DNA from: an uncultured virus (IMG/VR IMGVR_UViG_3300021559_000316) | Lineage: Duplodnaviria; Heunggongvirae; Uroviricota; Caudoviricetes | DNA: 38,118 nucleotides | IMG/VR virus record: IMGVR_UViG_3300021559_000316 | Direction: 5' to 3' (one strand) | Shown here: positions 3,908 to 37,271 of the stretch, in pieces | Position numbering within the stretch: position 1 is the stretch's first letter | How the letters are laid out: the number at the start of each line of letters is the position of its first letter | The notes under the pieces: generated by a model | Database searches by the model: none | What the model was told of the DNA's origin: nothing | Seen by the model: the letters and a program-made list of their open reading frames with translations, nothing else | Position numbers and translations under genes: made by a program

Positions 3908-4135
3908 ATGGGACTCATCTTCAAAGTACCAGCGCTCAAGAGATACCCGCGCGATCTCTACCGTGTGCGCACCGGCGACGGACGCAACTACGTCTACTTC
4001 GATACGGAAAAGGAGGCGCGCGAGCACGCGAAATACGCGATCCGCGTCGGCGCAACGAAGGCGTGCGTTGACGTCGCTCCGCCCAGCGGCACGTTTGTGC
4101 AGATCGCCTGCATGCGACGAAGGAAGCGTCGATGA
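3908..4135 (+). CDS. Hypothetical protein, basic C-tail
   Basis: GAGG RBS; ends RRRKRR; ATGA overlap. Confidence 0.65.
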   Translation: MGLIFKVPALKRYPRDLYRVRTGDGRNYVYFDTEKEAREHAKYAIRVGATKACVDVAPPSGTFVQIACMRRRKRR

Positions 4136-4581
4136 AGACCGCAGCCGAGCTCAATCGCGACATCGACACCTCCATCCGCGAGAAGTCGCTGCCGAAGCGC
4201 CTCAAGTACGGCGATTACGTCGCAACGTTCGTAGAGATCGCCCATCCCGGCACGTCTCACGCGTCGGCAAAGTGGAAAATCACCCGGCGCGGCAAGGAAG
4301 TCGGGACGATGCACGAGGGATCGGCGTATGGCTGGGGGCGCCCCACTACGACGATGCGCCAGCTCGTCTGGAGCGGCGTGATGCCGCCCGGCGAGAGCGA
4401 TCCACGAACACCCGAGTACGGCATCGGATTCGACCAAGGACCGAGCGATTCGCACGCGACCGCGATCGCAAAGTTTGCGAAGGCGGCCGATCGACTGATC
4501 GCGTGGCGCCACAAGCACGGCTATGCGGCGATGGGCCACACGCGCGGGGGCAAGGCGAAGCGAAAGACGGGTAGGGGTTAG
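4132..4581 (+). CDS. Leader-motif protein 1 (MKTAAELNRDIDTSI)
   Basis: Shared N-terminal motif; unique body. Confidence 0.8.
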   Translation: MKTAAELNRDIDTSIREKSLPKRLKYGDYVATFVEIAHPGTSHASAKWKITRRGKEVGTMHEGSAYGWGRPTTTMRQLVWSGVMPPGESDPRTPEYGIGFDQGPSDSHATAIAKFAKAADRLIAWRHKHGYAAMGHTRGGKAKRKTGRG

Positions 4582-4584
4582 ACG

Positions 4585-4779
4585 ATGAACAAGGCGCGTC
4601 CATCACAACGTTTCAAGGTCGGTGATCGCGTCCAGATCCCCGCGTGGCACGACGACTGGATGCGCGGTGATCGCTATGGCGAGATCATCTGGGTCGGGAA
4701 GGTGGACACGGTGCGCGTCCTCTATGACAAGAGCGCCCGCGTCCGCCGCTGGAACGCCGACTTCTTGACGAAGGTCTGA
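4585..4779 (+). CDS. Small SH3/KOW-like beta-barrel protein
   Basis: FKVGDRVQI...GEIIWVG...VRVLYD. Confidence 0.65.
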   Translation: MNKARPSQRFKVGDRVQIPAWHDDWMRGDRYGEIIWVGKVDTVRVLYDKSARVRRWNADFLTKV

Positions 4780-4782
4780 GCG

Positions 4783-5160
4783 ATGGCGAAATCCCCCCAA
4801 CAGCTCCAACGCGAGATCGACGAGTTCCTCGCGAAGCCGAAGAAGCTCGGCGATCCCGCGTACGAGCGCGAGTGGGCCGATCTACTCGCGGAGAAACACG
4901 CCAAGGCGCGTATGCCGACGATCGACGAGCTCGCGCGCGCGCTCCGCTACCTCGAGAACGAGTACGTCCTCAAGGGAAAGATCGACTCAGAGCAGTGGGC
5001 GGAGGGACTCGCGTTCGGTCGTTACGCGGGCGACGCGGAGAACAAGCATCAGGCGAGGGAGATGCTCGGGCAGCTCTCAACTGGTCAGTGGTTGCGCATC
5101 GCCGAGCGCGCCAACTACCTCGCGCGCGAACAAGACGAAGCTCCGAGGTATCTCAAATGA
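4783..5160 (+). CDS. Leader-motif protein 2 (MAKSPQQLQREIDEFL)
   Basis: Shared N-terminal motif. Confidence 0.8.
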   Translation: MAKSPQQLQREIDEFLAKPKKLGDPAYEREWADLLAEKHAKARMPTIDELARALRYLENEYVLKGKIDSEQWAEGLAFGRYAGDAENKHQAREMLGQLSTGQWLRIAERANYLAREQDEAPRYLK

Positions 5161-5462
5161 CGAAGAGCGACAAGCAGCTCGCCAGCGACATCTCTCGGAC
5201 GATCATCGCATCGATCGATCTCGATCGCGGCAACTACCGCGTCACCGTCGCGATCGATCCCACGCGCGGCGGCTACCTCGCGCGGCTCATCAGCATGGGC
5301 ATCGGCACGCTCATGTCGGCCGACGGCCCCACGCCGCAGGCGGCGGGCACCCGCCTCGCGAAGAGCATGCGAGAGGGTGCCCTGGACGCGAAAGATCGCG
5401 CGCTGGCCAAGGAGCTCAAGCAGCGGCTCGAGACGTATCAACACAGCTGGGGAGCGCGCTGA
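5157..5462 (+). CDS. Leader-motif protein 3 (MTKSDKQLASDISRTI)
   Basis: ATGA overlap; shared motif. Confidence 0.75.
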   Translation: MTKSDKQLASDISRTIIASIDLDRGNYRVTVAIDPTRGGYLARLISMGIGTLMSADGPTPQAAGTRLAKSMREGALDAKDRALAKELKQRLETYQHSWGAR

Positions 5463-5701
5463 TGGCGAAGCGATGGGCAGCGGCCGCCGGCGCCGCACAA
5501 CAAATCAAGACCGCCTCGGCCGACTTCTCCAAGGAAGTCCGCGCCGGCCTCCTCAAGCGCGGTATCAAGTTCGTCGGCACGACGTGGCTGCCCGACGAGA
5601 AGGGCAATTACGCGAACGGCATGCGCGGCTACCTGCTCGACGACAACGGCAAGGGTCTGGTACGCGACTACGGCGGCGTGCTCCGGCTCGCGGGGTTCTG
5701 A
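5462..5701 (+). CDS. Hypothetical protein
   Basis: TGATG overlap, GGGAG RBS. Confidence 0.7.
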   Translation: MAKRWAAAAGAAQQIKTASADFSKEVRAGLLKRGIKFVGTTWLPDEKGNYANGMRGYLLDDNGKGLVRDYGGVLRLAGF

Positions 5702-5703
5702 TC

Positions 5704-6054
5704 ATGGCGAAGAGCGGAAAGCAGCTCGATCGTGAGGTCGATGCCTTCATCGAGCGATCCCTCGCGAAGAAGCGCAAGAGCGGCAAGGTCAAGCCGCATC
5801 TCCACGTCCGTTACCGCCTCCAGCTCACCCCAAGCGAGCTGCGCGCGGTCGAATTCGCGCGCGGTCGCTACGCATGGCCGGACATGCTCTCCGCGCACGC
5901 GACGGAGAGCGGCCTGGTTGCGTTCACCGAGCCGCAGATGTGGCAGTGGACGGACGATGTCGATAGCGACACGGAGGGTGGCCACTCGCCGTTCCCGCTC
6001 GCGTCTGGCGCGTTCGCGGAGAAGCTCCAGCGCTTCTACGACGAGAGGATCTAG
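5704..6054 (+). CDS. Leader-motif protein 4 (MAKSGKQLDREVDAFI)
   Basis: Internal ATG of ORF 5377..6054; shared motif. Confidence 0.8.
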   Translation: MAKSGKQLDREVDAFIERSLAKKRKSGKVKPHLHVRYRLQLTPSELRAVEFARGRYAWPDMLSAHATESGLVAFTEPQMWQWTDDVDSDTEGGHSPFPLASGAFAEKLQRFYDERI

Positions 6055-6345
6055 ATGACGCGCGAGAAGACCAAAGCTCAGCTCGATCGTGAGATCGAGG
6101 CATTTGTCGGAGGTCGTCCTCGGCGCATCGTCCAGCTCGCCGCGAAGATGACCAAAGTCAAGATGGCCAAGCACTGGCTCGCGCACGACGAGCGCGGCAC
6201 CTTCGAGAAGATGGCAGCGCGGCTGCTTGAGGCGTCGGCCGCGCGCGCGAAAGAACTCGGGATGACCGACGCAGCAGTCGACGAGGCGACCGCGATCGAA
6301 GTCCTACTCGCCGCGCTGAAAGCCGTGGGAAAGCACCAACACTGA
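6055..6345 (+). CDS. Leader-motif protein 5 (MTREKTKAQLDREIEAFV)
   Basis: TAG-ATG abutting, GAGG RBS; shared motif. Confidence 0.8.
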   Translation: MTREKTKAQLDREIEAFVGGRPRRIVQLAAKMTKVKMAKHWLAHDERGTFEKMAARLLEASAARAKELGMTDAAVDEATAIEVLLAALKAVGKHQH

Positions 6346-6350
6346 ACACC

Positions 6351-6554
6351 ATGGCGAAGAAACCGACCATCGCGTACTGGATCCGGAGCCGCGACGCCGG
6401 CGGCAAGGTCGTCGAGCCCGTCTACGTATATGGCACGTGCCGCCGCGCGGACGAGGGCATGGTCGGCTACGACCTGCGTGTGCGGCCGCTTCGCCTCGGC
6501 AAGGGGCCCTACACGATGGTCGTCTCGCCGGACGACATCGAGGAGACACCGTGA
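6351..6554 (+). CDS. Hypothetical protein
   Basis: MAKK start, fills operon gap. Confidence 0.65.
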   Translation: MAKKPTIAYWIRSRDAGGKVVEPVYVYGTCRRADEGMVGYDLRVRPLRLGKGPYTMVVSPDDIEETP

Positions 6555-6847
6555 CCGGACCCTGCACCGTCGCGAAGTACCTCGAAGTCCTCTCGCACGC
6601 GCTCGTGCGCTACGACATGGCGACGAGTGCGCGCGAAGCCAAGCGCGGCCGCGTCAACATCTACCGCATGGGCCTCCTGATGGAGGCGCTCCAGCGCGTA
6701 CGGGCGGCGGTCGGCTCGCACACATCGGACAGCGAGGCGGACAAGGCCGCCTTCCGCGCGGCGATGTACGAATACTTCGAGCTTAACTTCCCGCCCGTGA
6801 AGAAGGTGATCAAGCAGCTCGAGGCGGGGACCTGCAAGATCAAATGA
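6551..6847 (+). CDS. Hypothetical helical protein
   Basis: GTGA overlap, AGGAG RBS. Confidence 0.7.
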   Translation: MTGPCTVAKYLEVLSHALVRYDMATSAREAKRGRVNIYRMGLLMEALQRVRAAVGSHTSDSEADKAAFRAAMYEYFELNFPPVKKVIKQLEAGTCKIK

Positions 6848-6861
6848 CGAGGTACTGATCC

Positions 6862-7077
6862 ATGGCCAAGTCATCTAAGCAGCTCGACCGCGAGATCGAC
6901 GAGGCGGTCTACAAGTTCCGCGTGACCGTTCGCGTGGAGGGCGCCCCTAAGCCGGTGTGGACATCATCTTGGATGCCGACGAAGGAACAGGCCAATCGCT
7001 TGGCCGCCGCATATCGAGATACGGTTCGCAATCGTGGCTGGACGCACAAAGTCGAGATCGAGCGGATCCTGAAATGA
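6862..7077 (+). CDS. Leader-motif protein 6 (MAKSSKQLDREIDEAV)
   Basis: GAGG RBS; shared motif. Confidence 0.8.
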   Translation: MAKSSKQLDREIDEAVYKFRVTVRVEGAPKPVWTSSWMPTKEQANRLAAAYRDTVRNRGWTHKVEIERILK

Positions 7078-7307
7078 AGTATCCGCCCAAACGACACGGC
7101 AAGCGCAACGACGAGAGCCTCGGCGTCGCCCACGTGCTCCGCCTCGTCGCGAAGCGCGACTCGAGCGATCTCGGCATCGACCGCGGCATGCGCGTGCTCG
7201 TGACGCGCTACCGCGGCAACCGCATGGACCTGTACGTACCCGCGATCGACGCCGACATCCTCGGTGTGCCGATCAACCATCCTGATCTGGAGATCGCGTC
7301 GCGATGA
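7074..7307 (+). CDS. Hypothetical protein
   Basis: ATGA overlaps at both ends. Confidence 0.65.
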   Translation: MKYPPKRHGKRNDESLGVAHVLRLVAKRDSSDLGIDRGMRVLVTRYRGNRMDLYVPAIDADILGVPINHPDLEIASR

Positions 7308-7588
7308 AGCGTGAGCCGATCACCGGTGATCTAGCCAAGCGCATCCCGCGCTTCGACTTCATCGCGCACTACCTCGTCGTGGCGACCGCGAAGAAGCAGG
7401 ATCGCGGGCCGCTCAATTACCGCGTGCGCCGCGTGGGCGGCGAGTGGCGGATCGAGGCCGGGCGCGATCCCGTCGTCGTGTACGCGACGACGGACACCGG
7501 CAAGCTGTTCGACTACGCGAGGCGTACCGAGCTCGGTCACTACACGCGGGCCGCCGACTTGTTCCGCGAAGAGGCATATCTCGGATGA
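7304..7588 (+). CDS. Hypothetical protein
   Basis: ATGA overlap, GGAG RBS. Confidence 0.65.
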   Translation: MKREPITGDLAKRIPRFDFIAHYLVVATAKKQDRGPLNYRVRRVGGEWRIEAGRDPVVVYATTDTGKLFDYARRTELGHYTRAADLFREEAYLG

Positions 7589-7995
7589 GCTACAAGTCAT
7601 CAGATATCGTCGCCGAGACCGACAACCACTTCGCAATTCGCGTCAAGAATGGTTTCGAGATCTATCGCCGGGGACTCACGCACGCCACGCGCGTCGCGCA
7701 GATCGGTTGGACTGGCAAAGAAGGTCTAGAGCGCACGCGCAAGGAGATCGCGCGTCGTGAGGCTCCCCAAAAGAAGACTACGAGCAAAGAAGCTCGGTTC
7801 GTCGACTACCTGCTCAACTTCTACGGCACCGGCGGTATCTACACGACACCGGGCGATCCATTCCACCGGCCGATGACGCGCGAAGAAGCGCAGAGCGCCG
7901 CGACAGTTCTCACCGCGCGCGAGGACTTCGAGGGCGACACGTTCGATCGCGAGAAGGCACGCGACCTTGTGCTCACTTGGCGAGGCAAACAATGA
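7585..7995 (+). CDS. Hypothetical protein, possibly two small domains
   Basis: ATGA overlap, GAGG RBS; internal KKTTSK linker. Confidence 0.7.
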   Translation: MSYKSSDIVAETDNHFAIRVKNGFEIYRRGLTHATRVAQIGWTGKEGLERTRKEIARREAPQKKTTSKEARFVDYLLNFYGTGGIYTTPGDPFHRPMTREEAQSAATVLTAREDFEGDTFDREKARDLVLTWRGKQ

Positions 7996-8249
7996 GCAAG
8001 ATCGCAAAAGAGATCAACGAAGCTCTCTCGTCGACCAAGATCTGGAAGCGCGACGAGTGGCGCGCCCCTGGCAAGCCAGTGAAGGTCGTGTGGAAGTACG
8101 TGCGCACCGTGCCCGTCGAGGAGGCCGCGCAATGGCTCGCGATCTTCCAGAAGGACGAGCCGCACGAGACGTTCGTCCTCGCCCCCACCAAGCCGCGCGG
8201 TCAGAACGTGAAGGTGAAGTTCTTGACCGGGCCGGGGATGACGTGCTGA
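7992..8249 (+). CDS. Leader-motif protein 7, shortened motif (MSKIAKEINEAL)
   Basis: ATGA overlap; partial motif. Confidence 0.7.
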   Translation: MSKIAKEINEALSSTKIWKRDEWRAPGKPVKVVWKYVRTVPVEEAAQWLAIFQKDEPHETFVLAPTKPRGQNVKVKFLTGPGMTC

Positions 8250-8548
8250 TGGCGAAGAAGAAGAGCGCCAAGCAGCTCGAGCGCGACATCGCCGACTCGC
8301 TCGCCACGACCCAGGTGCGCGAGCGGTTCGGCCCCAAGGTCGCCGACGCGATCGAGCGCTACCCGGGACGGTACGTCGCGGTCGCGTGGACGTTCGACGC
8401 CGCCGTACTCGCCGCTGCCGGCGCTGATCCTGGCCGCGCTTACCAGGAGGCCAACTACACCAAGACCGATATGCCGGGGCTGCTCGCCTCGCTGCGGAAG
8501 CACGGAGTACGATCGATAACCGTGAACGATCGCGAAGTGGAGCTATAG
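8249..8548 (+). CDS. Leader-motif protein 8 (MAKKKSAKQLERDIADSL)
   Basis: TGATG overlap; shared motif. Confidence 0.8.
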   Translation: MAKKKSAKQLERDIADSLATTQVRERFGPKVADAIERYPGRYVAVAWTFDAAVLAAAGADPGRAYQEANYTKTDMPGLLASLRKHGVRSITVNDREVEL

Positions 8549-8582
8549 CCATGGCGACGAAGAAGACCCGAGGGGTGTCGTC

Positions 8583-8780
8583 GTGAAATACCGGGTGAAC
8601 TTCGGCCAAGGGCAGGTCTCGCACACGCTGAAGTCGGCGGCGGAGGCGAAACGCTACATCGAGCAGTCAAAACGGTACGGCAGCGATCCGTACGTCCACC
8701 GCTACTTCATCGAATTCTGGGATCCGGCTGGCGGTTGGTTTCCAGTCGCACCTCATGCAGTGAAGAGCAAACGGCAATGA
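8583..8780 (+). CDS. Hypothetical protein
   Basis: GAGGGG RBS before GTG; ATGA overlap downstream. Confidence 0.65.
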   Translation: MKYRVNFGQGQVSHTLKSAAEAKRYIEQSKRYGSDPYVHRYFIEFWDPAGGWFPVAPHAVKSKRQ

Positions 8781-9175
8781 AGAAGAAAACCGCCAAGCAG
8801 CTCGAACGCGAGATCGACGCCGCCCTCATGATCGGCCGCCACGTCAAGTCCGCGTGGCACGGCCTCGCCGACGGTGAGATCCTCAAGTGGGAGCCGTTCG
8901 GCGCGGACGTGCTCGTGCGCGACGTCGCGACAGGCAAAGAGAGCTGGTACGCGAGCTACGGTCTCACCCCGATCGACGGCAAGGGGCCGCTGCCATCACG
9001 AAGCAAGGCACAGGAGCGCAACCGGCAGGCGATGGTGACCTCGCTCGAGGCGATCCGCGCACAGCACGTCAAGGAGTGGCACAAACCGTGGCCAGGAGCG
9101 GAGCACGGCAAAGCGATCCTCGGACGATCGATCGACGCGGCGCTCGCGGACGTGCGCAAGACCAAGAAACGCTAG
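8777..9175 (+). CDS. Leader-motif protein 9 (MKKKTAKQLEREIDAAL)
   Basis: ATGA overlap; shared motif; basic C-tail. Confidence 0.8.
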   Translation: MKKKTAKQLEREIDAALMIGRHVKSAWHGLADGEILKWEPFGADVLVRDVATGKESWYASYGLTPIDGKGPLPSRSKAQERNRQAMVTSLEAIRAQHVKEWHKPWPGAEHGKAILGRSIDAALADVRKTKKR

Positions 9176-9177
9176 CG

Positions 9178-9549
9178 ATGGCCCACAAGAAGACCCCCGC
9201 CGCCCAGCTCGAGCGCGAGATCACCGAGTCGCTCGCCAAGCCCCGCGCGACCGACACGAATCTATTCGCGCTCACCGAGCTGGTGCTGCGCGCCGGCAAA
9301 TCGTCGTTCTCGAACCGACTCGAGCGCGTCGACTATCCGCACATCAAGCGCACGCTCGCCGCGGGCCTCGTCGAGGCAGATCCGGCCGCGAGCCTCCTGC
9401 GCCTCACGTCGGAAGGGCGTGACGTCGTGCTCCGTCGCCTGCGCAAGGAGCAAACGCGCATGCAGCAAGCGGCGTACAGCCGCCCCGAGGACGATCGGCG
9501 CCGACGGCAGATCGACGAAGCGATCGCCGCCCTCGAGCGCAGGAGCTGA
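9178..9549 (+). CDS. Leader-motif protein 10 (MAHKKTPAAQLEREITESL), wHTH-like body
   Basis: Shared motif; LAAGLVE...LRLTSEGR resembles a winged-helix wing. Confidence 0.8.
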   Translation: MAHKKTPAAQLEREITESLAKPRATDTNLFALTELVLRAGKSSFSNRLERVDYPHIKRTLAAGLVEADPAASLLRLTSEGRDVVLRRLRKEQTRMQQAAYSRPEDDRRRRQIDEAIAALERRS

Positions 9550-9556
9550 TCCGATC

Positions 9557-9817
9557 GTGGCGAAGAAGGTCATGATCCTCGGCTACACGAGGACGGGCAA
9601 GGCCATTCTCGAGCCCACGCGCGGCGCGCCGAACGTCGACGACATCCGCGTCTTTCACCGCGCGCGGCGATCGTTCCCCGACTGGACGCGCGGCGATCAC
9701 GAGGACGCGTCGCAGATCCTGCTCGAGCACGGCGAGCGCACCTACGGCACGAAGGTCGGCACCTGGAGTACGAACTGGTCGAGCGTGCATTGGCACCTCG
9801 GGCGGTTCAAGGACTGA
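9557..9817 (+). CDS. Hypothetical protein
   Basis: AGGAG RBS; GYTRTGKAI...DHEDA. Confidence 0.65.
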   Translation: MAKKVMILGYTRTGKAILEPTRGAPNVDDIRVFHRARRSFPDWTRGDHEDASQILLEHGERTYGTKVGTWSTNWSSVHWHLGRFKD

Positions 9818-13191: not shown

Positions 13192-13427
13192 CCAAGCTAT
13201 TCCGCGGCTGCCGCTACGAGGTGCGCTACCACGCGCCACGCGATCTCGTGGAGTCGCGCTGGTCGCGCCACCATTCGTACAAGGCTGCGCATCGGGCGTT
13301 CCGCGAGTTCGTGAACAACGTGCGCGGCGATCACGCTGCCGGCACGCCGGTGACGCTGTACGACGTCGGTGAGGACGGATCGGGGAACCAGATCCTTGAG
13401 CAAGGGTCAGCTGGATGGACAACATGA
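13188..13427 (+). CDS. Hypothetical protein
   Basis: AAGGAG RBS, GTGA overlap. Confidence 0.65.
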   Translation: MTKLFRGCRYEVRYHAPRDLVESRWSRHHSYKAAHRAFREFVNNVRGDHAAGTPVTLYDVGEDGSGNQILEQGSAGWTT

Positions 13428-15358
13428 AGCTCCGCATCTCCGATGATCTAGCGCTCCCCCTCGACTTCATCACGTCAACGCAGGCGATCCTCGCGAAGAA
13501 GCGCGTCGGCAAAACGTACACCGCGCAGGTGCTCGCCGAGGAGCTACTCGCAGCCGGTCAGCAGATCGTCGTGATCGATGTGACCTCGGTCTGGTGGGGA
13601 CTCCGATCGAGCGCGGACGGCAAGGCCGAGGGCTACCCGATCACGATCTTCGGCGGCCGTCATGGCGATTTACCGCTCGAGGCAACCGCCGGCGAAGAGC
13701 TTGCCAACGCGATCGTCGACGACAAGTTCTCCGCCGTGCTCGACGTACGCCTCTTGAAGAAGGGCCAACGGCTGCGGTTCATCGCCGACTTCCTCGAAGC
13801 CCTATACGACAAGAACACCGAGGCGATGCACCTCTTCCTAGACGAGGCCGATGCCTACATCCCCCAGCGCGCGTTCACACCGGAGCAGGCTCGCGCGCTC
13901 GGCGCGGGCGACGAACTCGTGCGACGAGGCGGCAGCGGCGGCATCGGCGTCACGATGATCAGCCAGCGAGCACAAACCCTGAACAAGGACGTGCTCAGCC
14001 AGGTCGACATGCTCACCGTCCTGCGTATGAATCACCCGAAAGACCTCGGGGCGATCAAGGACTGGGTCGTCGAGCACGTCGACGCCGACAAGGCGAAAGA
14101 GATGATGGCGTCGCTGCCGGGGCTTCCGAAGGGCGAGGCATGGGTGTGGGCACCAGAGCTCGGCATCTTCAAACGCATTCACGTTCGGCAGAAGCGGACG
14201 TACGACAGTGGTCGCACGCCGAAGGTCGGTGAGCGCGTGCACCCGCCGAAGAAGCTCGCGAAGGTCGATATCGAGCGGCTCGGAGAGCGCATCAAGGCGA
14301 CCGTCGAGCGCGCGAAGGCCAACGATCCGAAGGAGCTCAAGGCCGAGATCGCGCGGCTCAAGAAGGCCCACGACGTGCTCGCCGCCGGCATGGAGCGCGA
14401 GATCCAGCGCCAGCTTGCAGCCGCGCCCAAGGACAAGATCAAGCCCGCCAAACCCGCCAAGATCAAGTCCCCGATTACGGACAAACAGATCCAGTGGATC
14501 GAGAAGATCGTCGCGCGCTACGGCGAGCTGGGCACCGCGTGGGAGAAAGCACGGACGCGCGCGACCGACAAGCTCGCCACCACGATGGATCGCGCAGATG
14601 CCCTCATCCGCCGCGCGCTCGCGGACGCGCAGACGCAGCAGGAGAACTTCGAAGTGAACGCGATGGCGCTCAGCACCGAGACCGAGATCGCGGTCAAGGC
14701 CCTGCGCGACGCGCTCGCGACCGTCGCAGCGAATCCGATTGCTCTCGAGCTCAGCAAGGCCATCAGCACGATGAAGCCACCACGCTTATCGACGCCGGGC
14801 GCGCCACGCGACATGCACGATCTCGACGCCGGCGTGGGCGCGCGATCCACGATGCGGCCGCGCACCAAGATCGAGCAGCAAGCCGATTCCAGTGGCGAAC
14901 TCTCGCGCATGGAGCGCAACCTCCTCATCGCGATCGCGCAGCACCCAAACGGGATCACGCGCAAGCAGGCCCTCCTCTTCACCGGCTATGCCCGAAGCGG
15001 CACGACCAACAAGGCGTTCGCGCGGCTCGTCGCCGACCAGCTCGTCGACGCGCCGCACGGAGGACTCGTCGTCGCGACAGCCACGGGCATCCGTACGCTC
15101 GGCGATTACGAGCAGCTACCGATGGGCGATGCACTGCGCGCCCAGCTTCTCAACGGATCGAGCGCGCTGTCGACGATGGAGAAGGCACTCCTCGCACGCG
15201 CCTGCGAGACGTACCCGGAGACGATCGCGCGATCTGCCGCGCTCGGCGACTACGCGCGGAGCGGCACGACCAACAAGGCGTTCGCGCGACTCGTCGGGAT
15301 GGGTTATCTGACGAAGAGCCGCGGCGGCGTGCGCGCCGCGGAAGAGCTGTTCGGATGA
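13424..15358 (+). CDS. HerA/FtsK-superfamily (DUF87-like) ATPase with coiled coil and two C-terminal wHTH-like repeats
   Basis: Walker A AKKRVGKT, Walker B LFLDEAD, SQR motif, VLSQ; repeated YARSGTTNKAFARLV. Confidence 0.85.
   Translation: MKLRISDDLALPLDFITSTQAILAKKRVGKTYTAQVLAEELLAAGQQIVVIDVTSVWWGLRSSADGKAEGYPITIFGGRHGDLPLEATAGEELANAIVDDKFSAVLDVRLLKKGQRLRFIADFLEALYDKNTEAMHLFLDEADAYIPQRAFTPEQARALGAGDELVRRGGSGGIGVTMISQRAQTLNKDVLSQVDMLTVLRMNHPKDLGAIKDWVVEHVDADKAKEMMASLPGLPKGEAWVWAPELGIFKRIHVRQKRTYDSGRTPKVGERVHPPKKLAKVDIERLGERIKATVERAKANDPKELKAEIARLKKAHDVLAAGMEREIQRQLAAAPKDKIKPAKPAKIKSPITDKQIQWIEKIVARYGELGTAWEKARTRATDKLATTMDRADALIRRALADAQTQQENFEVNAMALSTETEIAVKALRDALATVAANPIALELSKAISTMKPPRLSTPGAPRDMHDLDAGVGARSTMRPRTKIEQQADSSGELSRMERNLLIAIAQHPNGITRKQALLFTGYARSGTTNKAFARLVADQLVDAPHGGLVVATATGIRTLGDYEQLPMGDALRAQLLNGSSALSTMEKALLARACETYPETIARSAALGDYARSGTTNKAFARLVGMGYLTKSRGGVRAAEELFG
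14996..15296 (+). repeat. 37-bp direct repeat (36/37 identical) at 14996-15032 and 15260-15296
   Basis: AGCGGCACGACCAACAAGGCGTTCGCGCG(G/A)CTCGTCG. Confidence 0.9.
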
Positions 15359-24947: not shown

Positions 24948-26950
24948 ACACCGCGCGCGATCCAGGCTGGCTCCAGACCCCGATCTGGCAGCCGCAGATC
25001 ACGTGGACCGCGCCGAAGATCTCCGACCTGCCGAGCTGGGCCGACGCCAAGCGGATCTGCCTCGACGTCGAGTGCCGCGACGACGACCTCCACAAGCTCG
25101 GACCCGGCGTTCGCCGTGGCGGCTACGTCGTCGGCGTCGCATTCGCGATCGAGGACGGCCCTGCTGCATACCTTCCCGTAGCTCACGAAGGGGGAGGAAA
25201 TCTCCCTGCCGAGCACGTATGGGCGTACCTACGCGAACAAACCTCCGCATTCAACGGAGAGGCCGTCTTCAACTCAGCGCCGTACGATCTCGACTACCTC
25301 TGGGAAAACGGCGTCATGATCGGCGTTCGCCAGAAAGTACGCGACGTCCAGGTCGCCGAGCCGCTGCTCGACGAGCTCCAGCACAACTACAACCTCGACG
25401 CGATCTGCGCGCGGCGCGGGCTACCCGGCAAGGACGAGAGCGTACTGCGCACGCATGCCGCCGCGTGGGGCGTCGATCCAAAGAAGGGCCTGTGGCGCCT
25501 TCACGCTGGAGCGGTCGGCGCTTATGCCGAGCGCGATGTCAGCGCGCCGCTCGCGCTACTCCGCCGCCAAGAGCGTGAGCTCGACGAGCAGAACCTCGGC
25601 GAACCATACGAGCTAGAATCCCTGGTCACCCCAGCGCTCGTGCGGATGACGAGACGCGGAATTCGCGTCGATCTCGACGAGCTCGATCGCGTCGAGGTGT
25701 GGGCAAAGGAGCGGCGCCAGGCATATGTCGATCAGATCCATCACCTGACGGGCATCCGTATCAACTCGCTCGCGAACGCGCGCGAGCTTTACCCGGCACT
25801 TCGCGCGCGCGGTCTCGACGTGCTGACGCCAATCCACGCGGGCACGGGCAAGCCGACGCCGTCGATCACGAAGCTGTGGCTACAGCAGCAAGACGACGAC
25901 GTCGCGCGAGCCGTGATCTCGGGCCGTGAGTTCGACAAGTTGCTCGGTACGTACGTCGCCGGCTATCGAAAGCATTTGATCGGCAATCGGCTGCACCCGT
26001 CGTTCAAGCAGCTCGCCGGCGCGAGTGACGACGACCAGGACGAAGACGAGGCGGAGGGCGCGCGATTCGGGAGGTGCTCGGCGAAACATCCGAACGTACA
26101 GGCATCCATGAAACGCAGCCGCGAAATAGAAAAAAAGTGGCGAAGGGTGCTCGTCCCCGACGATGGAAAACGCTGGTTCAAATGTGACCTGGGGCAGCAA
26201 GAGCCGCGCATCACGGTCCACTTCGCCGAGCTCTGCCGCCTGCCCGGCGCGCGACAGGCCGGCAACGCGTTTCGCAACGATCCTTGCTTCGATCCTTACA
26301 AGCTCATGGTCGAGCTCTGTAAGACGCCTGCGGACACGGACCTTAAGCAGCTGCGTGACGATCTCAAGGAGATTTACCTCGCGCAGTGTTACGGGATGGG
26401 TAGCGGTAAAACGGCCCGTAAGCTCAAGCGTCCGACGATCTGGAAAACAAATGAGCGCACCGGCTATCAGTACGAAGCCGCAGGCCCCGAAGCACAAGCC
26501 ATCATCGACCGATTCAATCGCGGTGTGCCCTATGTGAAGGCGCTCGCGCGCATGTGCTCTAGGAGCGCGAAGAGCAAGAGGTACATCGTCGCGATCGGCA
26601 ACCGGCGCGTGCGCTTCGAGCTAGATGATAACGGCGAGATCCGCGACGAGCACAAGGCAATCTCAAAGCTAATCCAAGGGTCTGCTGCACACCAGACGAA
26701 GAAGGCCCTCGTCGCGCTCGATGCTGAAAATTTTCCACTTCAGCTCACTGTCCACGACGAGTTCGGCTACTCCGGCAACGACGAAGCCGAGGCGCGCCGC
26801 ATGGGCGAAATCACGTGCGACGCAGTCGTGATCCGCGTGCCATTCCGCTGCGACATCGAAGCCGGACCGAACTACGGCGATCTAACGAAGCTGTTCACGG
26901 TGGCAAGCAAACACACAATACTGTCATTAGCGGCGATGGAGGCTAACTGA
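24944..26950 (+). CDS. polA: Family A DNA polymerase with 3'-5' exonuclease domain
   Basis: ExoI DVE, FNSAPYD, YAERD; motif A DLGQQEPR, motif B R...K...L...YGMG, IQGSAA, motif C VHDE; GGAGG RBS. Confidence 0.95.
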   Translation: MNTARDPGWLQTPIWQPQITWTAPKISDLPSWADAKRICLDVECRDDDLHKLGPGVRRGGYVVGVAFAIEDGPAAYLPVAHEGGGNLPAEHVWAYLREQTSAFNGEAVFNSAPYDLDYLWENGVMIGVRQKVRDVQVAEPLLDELQHNYNLDAICARRGLPGKDESVLRTHAAAWGVDPKKGLWRLHAGAVGAYAERDVSAPLALLRRQERELDEQNLGEPYELESLVTPALVRMTRRGIRVDLDELDRVEVWAKERRQAYVDQIHHLTGIRINSLANARELYPALRARGLDVLTPIHAGTGKPTPSITKLWLQQQDDDVARAVISGREFDKLLGTYVAGYRKHLIGNRLHPSFKQLAGASDDDQDEDEAEGARFGRCSAKHPNVQASMKRSREIEKKWRRVLVPDDGKRWFKCDLGQQEPRITVHFAELCRLPGARQAGNAFRNDPCFDPYKLMVELCKTPADTDLKQLRDDLKEIYLAQCYGMGSGKTARKLKRPTIWKTNERTGYQYEAAGPEAQAIIDRFNRGVPYVKALARMCSRSAKSKRYIVAIGNRRVRFELDDNGEIRDEHKAISKLIQGSAAHQTKKALVALDAENFPLQLTVHDEFGYSGNDEAEARRMGEITCDAVVIRVPFRCDIEAGPNYGDLTKLFTVASKHTILSLAAMEAN

Positions 26951-26951
26951 C

Positions 26952-27710
26952 ATGGAACAGCCTATTAACACACGTGCTGAGTATCTCGATGCCCAATCTC
27001 AGGCGGGCTCTCGCCAGAGACAGAAACAAAAGCAGTACAGGGCCAATAACGCGGAAAAGATCCGTGAATATCAGAAGCAGTACAGGACCAAGAACAAGGA
27101 TAAAACGCGCGAGTATAATAAGCAGTATCGTACTGATAATGCGAAGACAATCAGTGCCAAAAAGAAGAAGGCTTGGGCAGACGATCCACATAGGAAGCGT
27201 GAGTGGCAGAAGAAATGGAATGCCGCGCACGTGGAAGAGATGCGCAAATGGCATAAGAGGTACCGCACCGATAACGCCGCGAAGCTCCGCACGCAAAAGA
27301 AGCAGTATCGGACCGAGAATGCCGAAAAAATCAGTAAGCGGAAACGTGAACTGCACGCTGCGAATGTAGATAAAGATCCTAAAGGCACTTGGCTCAAGAA
27401 GACATTTGGAAGGGCTAAGGCACGCGCGAAAAGGCGCGGATTGCCGTACGACCAAAAGCGCCCTGACCTAGAGCTGCCTGATGTTTGCCCGGTATTAGGA
27501 ATTGTACTTGTCTACCCGAACGCGCTCAAAAACAAGAGGTCTCCTAACAGCCCGTCACTGGATCGTCTGGAGAATCATCTTGGATATGTTGCTGTAAACC
27601 TGCGTGTCATTTCGTTTCGAGCAAATACTCTCAAAAATGACGCGACTGTAGATGAACTAGAAGCTGTTATTCGATACATGCAACGCCATCAAGCAAAGAA
27701 GGCAGCCTGA
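26952..27710 (+). CDS. HNH/His-Me-finger endonuclease with N-terminal 15-aa repeats
   Basis: RAK.RAK.RGL, CPVLG, SPSLDR..N.LGYV..N.RVIS.RAN.LKN; AT-rich; GGAGG RBS. Confidence 0.8.
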   Translation: MEQPINTRAEYLDAQSQAGSRQRQKQKQYRANNAEKIREYQKQYRTKNKDKTREYNKQYRTDNAKTISAKKKKAWADDPHRKREWQKKWNAAHVEEMRKWHKRYRTDNAAKLRTQKKQYRTENAEKISKRKRELHAANVDKDPKGTWLKKTFGRAKARAKRRGLPYDQKRPDLELPDVCPVLGIVLVYPNALKNKRSPNSPSLDRLENHLGYVAVNLRVISFRANTLKNDATVDELEAVIRYMQRHQAKKAA

Positions 27711-27735
27711 TGACCTCCGATCCTGGGAGTCTGTG

Positions 27736-28158
27736 ATGCAAACGATCCCCGTCGTATTCCTGCTCCACCCCGTCGGCATCGGCTCGACGCGCGCCATGAA
27801 CGTCGCCTCGGCCAAGATGTGGCTCCGCGCGCTCATCGACGCGCTCCCAGGCGTCGCCTTCGACGCGAGCTGGGTACCGTACGCCGAGATCGCGATCGAT
27901 CGCGAGCGAGGGATCCACGACGCGATCTGCGTGCTCGAACGCTGCGACGCCGTCGTCGCGGTCGGTGGCGAATTCAGCCGCGGCATGCGCACCGAATGGC
28001 AGCGCGCCGAGCAGAAGAAGCTCCACTGCATCGATCTCACGCGTCCACCGATGCCGACCATCTTGACGATCGAGTCGTTCATCGAGACGCGTACGACGGC
28101 GTTCCAGGCGAAGATCGCCGAGGCGTTCACCGGGATCACGAAGGCGAGGGCCGCGTGA
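27736..28158 (+). CDS. Nucleoside 2-deoxyribosyltransferase-fold (DUF4406-like) protein
   Basis: LERCDAVVAVGGEFSRGMRTEW...A motif. Confidence 0.65.
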   Translation: MQTIPVVFLLHPVGIGSTRAMNVASAKMWLRALIDALPGVAFDASWVPYAEIAIDRERGIHDAICVLERCDAVVAVGGEFSRGMRTEWQRAEQKKLHCIDLTRPPMPTILTIESFIETRTTAFQAKIAEAFTGITKARAA

Positions 28159-36308: not shown

Positions 36309-37271
36309 GTGATGATCTTGTCGGAGAGCGACAAGCGCGAGGTCTGCCCGCTGCACGGCTGGGTGGGCCGTCGCGCCTTCCAGCGTGATCGGCACGACCT
36401 CTGCGAGTCGCCCGAGGAGTCGCCGTCCGACGTCGACACCGAGCTCGATGAAGACGAGAGCGCCGATGATGAAGACGAGCACGACGATGAAGATGCCGAG
36501 GACGTGATCGAGCCGGCGCGGTGGAGTCGCGCGAGCGCGCGAGCGCGCGGTATCCCGCCCAAGAAGACGATCGCGGTTCGCCGGATCACGCAGGAGGATC
36601 TGAGCGTCGGCCGCGCCGAGCTGCAAGTGCTCGGAGCCGACGAGCCCTACGATCGGCCTAAGACGCGATCTGCTTGTCAGTGGTGTCCGGTGTGTCAGCT
36701 GGTGCGCGATGGAAAGAGCGATGGATCCGACGACGTGGCGATCCGGGCGCTGCGAAATGGTGTCTCAGAGGAGGAGCACGACGAGCCGCGCCCTCATTTC
36801 GAAAAACGGCGAGGACGTCTCGCGTGCGGCCACTTGATTACCGAAGTGATCCATCGGTCGCGTCCGTGCGTTTTCATCGCGTGCAAGCACGCACTCTATT
36901 TAGACATCAGCGAGACCGGATCGATCATCTTCAACTTCCCCCATCTCGAGCCCGGCCAGATGCCGGTGAAGCAGAGCTGCTCGCTCGATCTCGCTGATCG
37001 GGGCGGGATGACGCTCGAAGAGATCGCCGTGGTGACCAACCTGACGCGCGAGCGGATCCGCCAGGTCGAGGTGAAGGCGCTGCTACGGCGAGCTCGTCCA
37101 GCCGCACTCACGCTCGGCCTCGGTCCTGCCGATGCGGCGGCGGCCGGTACGCGACGCCTCGTCGGGCCGGGTGCGGATCTCGCCGAAACCGGGGTCGACG
37201 GCGAGCTGCCGAGCGACGTCGCGTCGATCTTGGGTACCGGCACTAGCGGCGGCAACCGCGGCGGAAAATAA
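36309..37271 (+). CDS. Cys-rich sigma70 region-4 HTH DNA-binding protein
   Basis: RPKTR..C...RPC.F..CKH.LYLD...NFP...[17 protein letters not shown]...[15 protein letters not shown]. Confidence 0.85.

Follow-up and report, generated by a model that had tools for sequence, protein, structure and literature searches.

Ten small proteins encoded side by side on a metagenomic phage genome begin with versions of one short peptide motif, and the same motif was found on many further proteins of related phages. The window, that is the whole stretch of DNA analysed, comprises 38,118 nt of the uncultured virus IMGVR_UViG_3300021559_000316 and belongs to a jumbo-sized, phage-like metagenomic element; the block studied is located at 4132..9549. 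The motif is portable between proteins, it is selected at the level of the peptide, and it is limited to this metagenomic phage group. Judging from the sequence pattern, we suggest with middling confidence that the motif helix docks diverse accessory proteins on one common partner. The analysis covered the 38 kb of the window's element and flanks of up to 8 kb of its relatives, and start codons were set by a simple rule on G+C content at third codon positions (GC3).

The tagged block

The block forms most of a tight run of about 19 small open reading frames (ORFs) on the plus strand (4132-9817), ten of which begin with the leader. All ten tagged ORFs were confirmed at the coordinates below. 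The leaders were scored with a profile of 14 positions made from 69 distinct metagenomic instances, none of them from the window.

4132..4581, + strand, g4132: 149 amino acids (aa); degenerate leader MKTAAELNRDIDTSI (4132-4176), 3.0 bits; N-terminus kept in orthologues P0003 and P0009; no Pfam or PHROG match
4783..5160, + strand, g4783: 125 aa; firm leader MAKSPQQLQREIDEFL (4783-4830), 24.0 bits; linker AKPKKLGDP, then an all-helical body
5157..5462, + strand, g5157: 101 aa; degenerate leader MTKSDKQLASDISRTI (5157-5204), 1.1 bits; kept in orthologues P0005-P0007
5704..6054, + strand, g5704: 116 aa; leader MAKSGKQLDREVDAFI (5704-5751), 13.0 bits
6055..6345, + strand, g6055: 96 aa; leader MTREKTKAQLDREIEAFV (6055-6108), 23.8 bits
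6862..7077, + strand, g6862: 71 aa; leader MAKSSKQLDREIDEAV (6862-6909), continuous with the body, 26.1 bits
7992..8249, + strand, g7992: 85 aa; short degenerate form MSKIAKEINEAL (7992-8027), 3.3 bits; kept in orthologues P0012 and P0015
8249..8548, + strand, g8249: 99 aa; leader MAKKKSAKQLERDIADSL (8249-8302), 20.6 bits; top match of the first profile search (P0001)
8777..9175, + strand, g8777: 132 aa; leader MKKKTAKQLEREIDAAL (8777-8827), 23.3 bits; orthologue P0008 and a copy in locus L087
9178..9549, + strand, g9178: 123 aa; leader MAHKKTPAAQLEREITESL (9178-9234), 17.4 bits; cluster of four from JGI, Logan and ENA metagenomes
4585..9817, + strand: nine interleaved untagged small ORFs (4585-4779, 5462-5701, 6351-6554, 6551-6847, 7074-7307, 7304-7588, 7585-7995, 8583-8780 and 9545-9817)

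Seven leaders are firm, with scores of 13-26 bits (g6862, g4783, g6055, g8777, g8249, g9178 and g5704). The other three (g4132, g5157 and g7992; 1.1-3.3 bits) are degenerate, since their scores fall within the noise of the window, where the best unrelated ORF reached 4.0 bits. Through their placement and the N-terminus kept in their orthologues, these three are probable but not proven members. The original prediction of ten leaders is therefore secure for seven of them and weaker for the rest.

A six-frame scan of the window yielded seven matches to the strict pattern K[ST]..QL.[RS][ED][IV]...[LIV] and eight to the core QL.[RS][ED][IV]...[LIVM]. All strict and core matches were on the plus strand inside the block (4783-9234), 3-10 residues past a start codon, and none was found elsewhere in the window, in agreement with the earlier remark that no N-terminal copy was seen outside the block. 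By chance about 0.04 core matches were expected against the eight observed: 2000 residue shuffles of the six frames gave a mean of 0.037 and a maximum of 2, and 1000 codon shuffles gave a mean of 0.012 and a maximum of 1.

The GC3 gene filter was passed by eight of the ten tagged ORFs. The gene list lacked g6862, and g6055 was called only from an internal start; relatives of both exist elsewhere. The orthologues of g6055 (P0010, P0016 and P0021) keep the motif and differ in their lead-ins, and the twelve orthologues of g4783 (71-81% identity) retain L8, E11, I12, E14, F15 and L16.

Behind the leaders, the bodies had been described as mutually unrelated, and this was upheld: with leaders trimmed, all-against-all BLASTP of the 19 block proteins gave a best E of 0.030 between tagged proteins, which is not significant. 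None of the 19 matched Pfam. PHROGs matched four, namely the untagged g4585, g5462 and g7585, all in families of unknown function, and the body of the tagged g6862, weakly (E 0.0028) and with the leader uncovered. The block had no blastn match in GenBank phages.

Consensus, predicted helix and selection on the peptide

The metagenomic instance counts given here and below rest on the listed loci, and the sample is biased by the DNA pattern by which it was collected. Among the matches listed, 113 non-identical instances gave the logo K-[TS]-[PA]-A-Q-L-D-R-E-I-A-[EA]-A-L. Polar and hydrophobic positions are both held, with Q in 112 instances, L in 113, R in 108, E in 107, I in 113 and the final L in 98. 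Position 1 is Ser or Thr in 99, often followed by Pro; S/T-P-x-Q, as in S/T-P-A-Q, is a classic helix N-cap. On the helix, the hydrophobic L, I and A-L line up as a narrow stripe; the other invariant positions are polar. The 14 residues after the motif are rich in Gly, Ser, Arg, Pro, Lys and Ala.

Structure prediction by AlphaFold 2 (AF2) agreed with a helix followed by a tether. The model of g4783 (13 orthologues; predicted local distance difference test score, pLDDT, of 84) has a leader helix at residues 5-17, a loop at 18-24 and then five helices. A multi-module relative of 347 aa from locus L057 was modelled as separate confident pieces, in which the motif is a helix followed by a linker with pLDDT of about 31.

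Synonymous codons of the leaders vary within the window, from which selection on the peptide had been proposed. The proposal was confirmed with 68 instances, in which only the positions left free by the search pattern were compared with background genes. Codon entropy (motif/background) was 1.45/1.54 at position 1, 1.73/1.64 at position 3, 0.98/0.91 at position 6, 0.80/0.84 at position 8, 1.50/1.64 at position 10 and 1.81/1.90 at position 13; the low codon entropy at L5, R7 and I9 is due to the way the instances were collected. Because the free positions have the entropy of the background, selection acts on the peptide rather than on a site or recombination sequence in the DNA, and conservation of the motif at the DNA level is ruled out.

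Distribution outside the window

A first profile search compared the ten N-termini with 5.8 billion proteins, in longer proteins only and with 8000 candidates scored. It gave 33 matches at E<=10, mostly orthologues of the window proteins that retain their leaders, together with new bodies behind the same N-terminus (P0018, P0027/P0029, P0031, P0032 and P0033). In the ESM Atlas, P0033 had no usable feature match, and its structural neighbours there, viral hypothetical proteins, were weak.

A second search, which left out the initiator Met and covered 1.84 billion representatives, returned 30 proteins at E<=0.001. The motif was N-terminal in proteins such as P0049, P0052, P0053 and P0063-P0068, internal after H-H-A-T-K-K in P0048, P0051, P0060 and P0061, and C-terminal in P0041, P0046 and P0055; two to four copies per protein were present in P0041-P0044, P0048, P0050, P0055 and P0059. 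As a side observation, P0040 (1425 aa), the top match of the profile search, contains five tandem 45-residue repeats, each with the look-alike T-K-S-A-E-Q-L-A-R-E-I-N-A-A-V, followed by a Pro-rich tail, and is probably a repeat protein with no relation to the tag.

The DNA pattern K[ST]xxQL[DE]R[DE]I detected at least 123 loci (567 kb) in metagenomes. Among the matches listed, 79 of 123 in-frame matches had a start codon not more than 8 codons away, and the remaining ones included chance families (2-oxoacid dehydrogenase E2, polysaccharide export proteins and DUF3618) and true internal or C-terminal copies. When the profile was run on the 12,778 stop-to-stop ORFs of the fetched loci, 166 matches of at least 10 bits were obtained, versus one in reversed sequences. 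At 12 bits or more, 133 distinct motif ORFs were listed, a few chance families included: the motif has a start codon within 10 codons in 85, is internal in 33 and has no visible start before it in 15, and 12 of the 133 end within 25 residues past the motif. Arrays of tags are common, with nine in 5.9 kb (L017), seven (L082), six (L057) and five (L023 and L029).

Prokaryotes were covered by one genome per species (185,579 species), and none matched the DNA pattern for K[ST]xAQLDREIA; the prokaryote patterns assume high-GC codons (CTS, CGN and ATC), so that low-GC copies would escape. The looser K[ST]xxQLDREI found 16 loci in these genomes, 11 of them in frame, all internal to unrelated proteins and none continuing the motif. 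In IMG/VR, a narrow DNA pattern gave one match, a chance one inside a portal-like protein, and among the 14 loci found with a wider pattern, a canonical N-terminal leader was present in L010 alone.

No Pfam family covered the motif in 23 further carriers at E<=0.5. PHROGs matched 8 of 122 carriers, always on the body and never on the motif, and short core strings of it were absent from all 8.4 million texts searched; broader literature searches by concept listed nothing relevant. The motif thus appears undescribed, as had been supposed. The original prediction fared less evenly on distribution: N-terminal matches in arrays with variable bodies were recovered from metagenomes, but a strictly N-terminal leader was contradicted by the internal, C-terminal and multiple copies in relatives, and IMG/VR yielded one canonical copy.

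Module shuffling and a junction motif

Several small genes of the window correspond to modules of longer proteins in related loci.

Window 6351-6554, + strand: untagged g6351; C-terminal module of longer proteins at L023:8320-8943 and L071:4106-4750, after DUF6496 modules and S-H-A-T-K-K or H-A-S-R-K-K
Window 5704-6054, + strand: tagged g5704; its body recurs behind different upstream domains, at L028:671-1246 after the motif, another domain and H-A-T-K-K, and at L057:7677-8420 and in L066 after a different domain, the motif and H-A-R-K-K

In a relative of g6862 (L057 12078-12554) an additional N-terminal part and N-H-A-T-K-K-K precede the motif, so that the motif is internal, and a homologue of the g5157 body in L024 is without leader. 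That small window genes are modules of longer relatives points to very active module shuffling in this phage group. The same bodies stand behind differing modules, which sets the ten genes apart from plain paralogues and makes the helix one of several movable beads. In L057:8240-9280 (minus strand) the motif is one of five beads.

A second motif, [SH]-H-[AS]-T-[KRM]-[KR], was observed at module junctions of multi-domain relatives; in many cases one copy immediately precedes the helix and another follows it by 5-12 residues. This second motif could signal cleavage or mark a linker.

L057:8240-9280, - strand: carrier of the junction motif
L019:9073-9633, - strand: carrier of the junction motif
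L071:4106-4750, + strand: carrier of the junction motif
L028:154-666, + strand: carrier of the junction motif
P0048, P0051, P0060 and P0061: proteins carrying the junction motif

H[AS]T is found within 10 residues upstream of the motif in 18 of the 113 listed instances, compared with a background of 0.35 per 1000 residues. Stand-alone module genes begin with M-A-K-K where the fused forms have H-A-T-K-K, and the window contains no H-A-T-K-K. The Thr of H-A-T was also considered as a near-cognate start; its codons (ACG 42, ACC 26, ACA 6 and ACT 4 of 78) follow background usage, and this idea was rejected.

A proposed docking peptide and its alternatives

In the reading we favour, the shared element is an autonomous and portable peptide module, made of a Lys patch, a Ser/Thr-Pro helix N-cap, an amphipathic helix of 12 residues and a flexible linker rich in Gly, Ser, Arg, Pro and Lys. 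The phages attach this module to a wide range of unrelated accessory proteins, terminally or between domains and sometimes repeatedly. It would act as a docking peptide, a short linear motif for one conserved partner, and dozens of differing proteins would be brought to the same place by the shared tag. The narrow hydrophobic stripe and the near-invariant Q, D, R and E would suit one conserved partner, and a helix conserved in both polar and hydrophobic positions, tethered flexibly and placed at any position or number on unrelated proteins, is best explained by docking. Candidates for the partner are the interior of the capsid, a phage compartment, and a hub of replication or transcription.

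Several points weigh against docking. Binding to a common partner is suggested only by conservation. No partner was found, and no conserved untagged neighbour gene recurs beside the arrays, so that a partner encoded next to them was rejected as a candidate. The leader helix of g4783 was predicted with a pLDDT of about 80, similar to that of the body, and thus the helix may pack on its own body there. Finally, H-[AS]-T-[KR] flanking the helix means that the module is more than one helix, and could mean processing rather than docking.

As a special case of docking, and in line with the T4 analogy of the original prediction, the helix could bind the prohead scaffold or core, load the tagged proteins into the capsid for injection and be cut by the prohead protease, which we consider unlikely. 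To our knowledge, shared address peptides on unrelated phage proteins are known mainly from T4. In the excerpted text of PMC9026906, N-terminal propeptides of 10-19 residues load unrelated internal proteins into the T4 prohead, the ADP-ribosyltransferase Alt has propeptides at both ends, and the protease gp21 cuts after L/I-X-E; an excerpt of PMC10052503 adds that giant phages package many processed head proteins. The capsid targeting sequence (CTS) of IPI-IPIII and Alt resembles our motif as a short peptide common to unrelated proteins with hypervariable cargo, including an ADP-ribosyltransferase and one protein tagged at both ends (PMC9026906, same excerpt), the likeness being one of description and not of peptide alignment. 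Effector-like enzymes are likewise among the tagged proteins here (a PARP-like ADP-ribosyltransferase domain, a metallopeptidase and GNATs), and I-x-E, matching the gp21 site, is present at the corresponding place in 56 of the 113 listed motifs. This is only about half of the instances, however, and only 4 of the 10 window leaders have it. Moreover, a T4-type CTS would be strictly N-terminal, whereas the motif here is also internal between domains (33 of the 133 listed ORFs), near the C-terminus (12) and in 2-4 copies. No capsid, portal, scaffold or prohead-protease gene was recognisable in the window or the flanks examined, none of 122 tagged proteins fell in the structural PHROG category, and the block is placed among ORFans, upstream of DNA-metabolism genes.

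A broader form of the idea, also unlikely in our estimate, is that the tag is a universal, position-independent address label of a huge soil phage clade, which would load dozens of unrelated effectors, among them ADP-ribosyltransferase, acetyltransferase, peptidase, sigma fragments and numerous ORFans, into the capsid to be co-injected or into a compartment inside the cell, with H-A-T-[KM] as cut sites releasing modules from polyproteins.

The helix with H-A-T-K-K might instead be a module-junction element, a conserved linker that aids module shuffling or marks polyprotein cleavage and has no binding role. This would account for the bodies recombined behind differing modules with H-A-[TR]-[KM] at each junction, for the five-bead protein of L057, for the enrichment of H[AS]T upstream of the motif, and for M-A-K-K in stand-alone genes replacing H-A-T-K-K of fusions. 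We find it improbable. Recombination through DNA homology predicts conserved synonymous sites, but the synonymous sites of the motif vary as much as those of background genes; near-invariance of Q, D, R and E is not expected of a mere linker; and the window has the leaders without H-A-T-K-K.

A regulatory handle is still less probable: a protease-adaptor site for timed removal, a target of a kinase or another modifying enzyme at K-[ST]-P, or a helix through which the tagged proteins bundle with one another. The Ser or Thr at position 1, often with Pro behind it, could be read in this way, and the multi-copy arrangement would suit avidity. But S/T-P-x-Q as an N-cap needs no modification, terminal degrons would fail from internal positions, and hydrophobic residues at i, i+4 and i+8 over 12 residues would probably make a poor stable coiled coil.

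That the ten genes are ordinary diverged paralogues, descended from one ancestor and recognisable only at the N-terminus, is hardly credible. Their tandem order on one strand and the visible decay of three leaders speak for it, but the bodies (71-149 aa) lack similarity and recur both beside other modules and in motif-free proteins. The motif in turn sits on known unrelated domains and at C-termini, and a single paralogous family was rejected.

Comparison with other targeting and hub-binding peptides

Encapsulation peptides of bacterial microcompartments and cargo-loading peptides of encapsulins are terminal amphipathic helices or short peptides on a flexible linker, which bring unrelated enzymes to one shell from either terminus. 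The motif is similar in its predicted form, an amphipathic helix on a flexible linker at the terminus of unrelated cargo, as modelled for g4783 (helix 5-17, then loop). It differs in its much higher polarity, Q, D, R and E being invariant, and its carriers are phage contigs and not bacterial operons. By Pfam, no BMC-H/T/P or encapsulin shell gene was detected among 45 window and 97 flank proteins.

Short linear motifs can also bind a hub, as does the beta-clamp motif QL[SD]LF. Such motifs are found N-terminally, C-terminally or internally on many unrelated proteins that share one hub, and the letters Q-L-D agree with our motif. The positions that follow are R (108 of 113) and E (107 of 113 listed instances) and not L-F; and the beta-clamp motif is extended, whereas the motif here is predicted to be helical with an N-cap.

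Carriers, cargo and neighbouring genes

The larger listed loci are on contigs of 18-461 kb. The proteins of the window itself are recorded on a contig of 178,797 bp, so its own contig is probably about 179 kb long. Flanking genes are mostly ORFans; the others include IF3, a PTH2-like peptidyl-tRNA hydrolase, full-length sigma-70, NUDIX, ADP-ribosylglycohydrolase, a KaiC/RecA-like ATPase and a TnpB-like protein. The combination of a large contig with translation and sigma genes matches descriptions of huge phages, and the carriers are uncultivated high-GC phages, probably huge ones. Sigma-related genes were seen repeatedly near tag arrays (L024, L071 and L086).

L029:11986-12705 (+), L024:3591-3881 (-), L086:9942-11564 (-), L071:619-2310 (-), L086:13139-15214 (+): translation, sigma and TnpB genes near tag arrays (IF3, PTH2-like hydrolase, full-length sigma-70 factors, TnpB/Cas12f-like), on contigs of 80-333 kb
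L017:4211-4675 (-), L029:7641-8033 (-), L029:13139-13663 (-), P0027/P0029/P0047, P0055: tagged proteins recognisable as enzymes or factors (PARP-like ADP-ribosyltransferase domain, YgjP-like metallopeptidase, GNATs, sigma-70 region 4)

Most of 128 tagged ORFs had no Pfam family. Chance families aside, the others matched DUF6496, DUF5661, YgjP-like metallopeptidase, the PARP-like ADP-ribosyltransferase domain, GNAT and, weakly, ParB_N. P0055 consists of a sigma-70 region 4 fragment followed by two C-terminal motifs.

Elsewhere in the window we found Dam-type methyltransferase, HerA/terminase-like ATPase, SNF2, Dda/RecD-like and VapE primase-helicase proteins, Pam3 gp33- and gp34-like proteins, NT5C and cpYpsA SLOG domains and a sigma-70 region 4 protein; the remainder are ORFans. 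The best tblastn relatives of the primase-helicase in GenBank phages are less than 40% identical, and no tRNA gene was found in the window. Among the DNA-metabolism genes, a 647-aa P-loop protein (13415-15358, plus strand) weakly matches HerA (DUF87) and a terminase-large-subunit-like family (phrog_2666, E 3e-13). The 320-aa protein at 36309-37271 (plus strand) has sigma-70 region 4 only (Pfam E 6e-7). Positions 26001-28000 have a G+C content of 0.54-0.59 against about 0.64 elsewhere, and few coding-like ORFs are located at about 25000-27650.

Meaning for the phage group

The tag marks a large share of small proteins that otherwise escape annotation, 7-10 in 5.4 kb here and up to nine in 5.9 kb elsewhere. 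As a sharply defined helix of 14 residues, different from the peptide of T4, the motif is an apparent hallmark of large soil and sediment phages that are unstudied. With it, their ORFans can be grouped, the common partner can be sought with a single peptide as bait, and metagenomic contigs of the group can be recognised. Should the partner prove to be the capsid or a phage compartment, the tag would offer a signal for cargo loading that is ready for use; and if the tag is an address label that loads effectors into one phage-built structure, these phages would possess a programmable cargo system usable for the delivery of foreign proteins.

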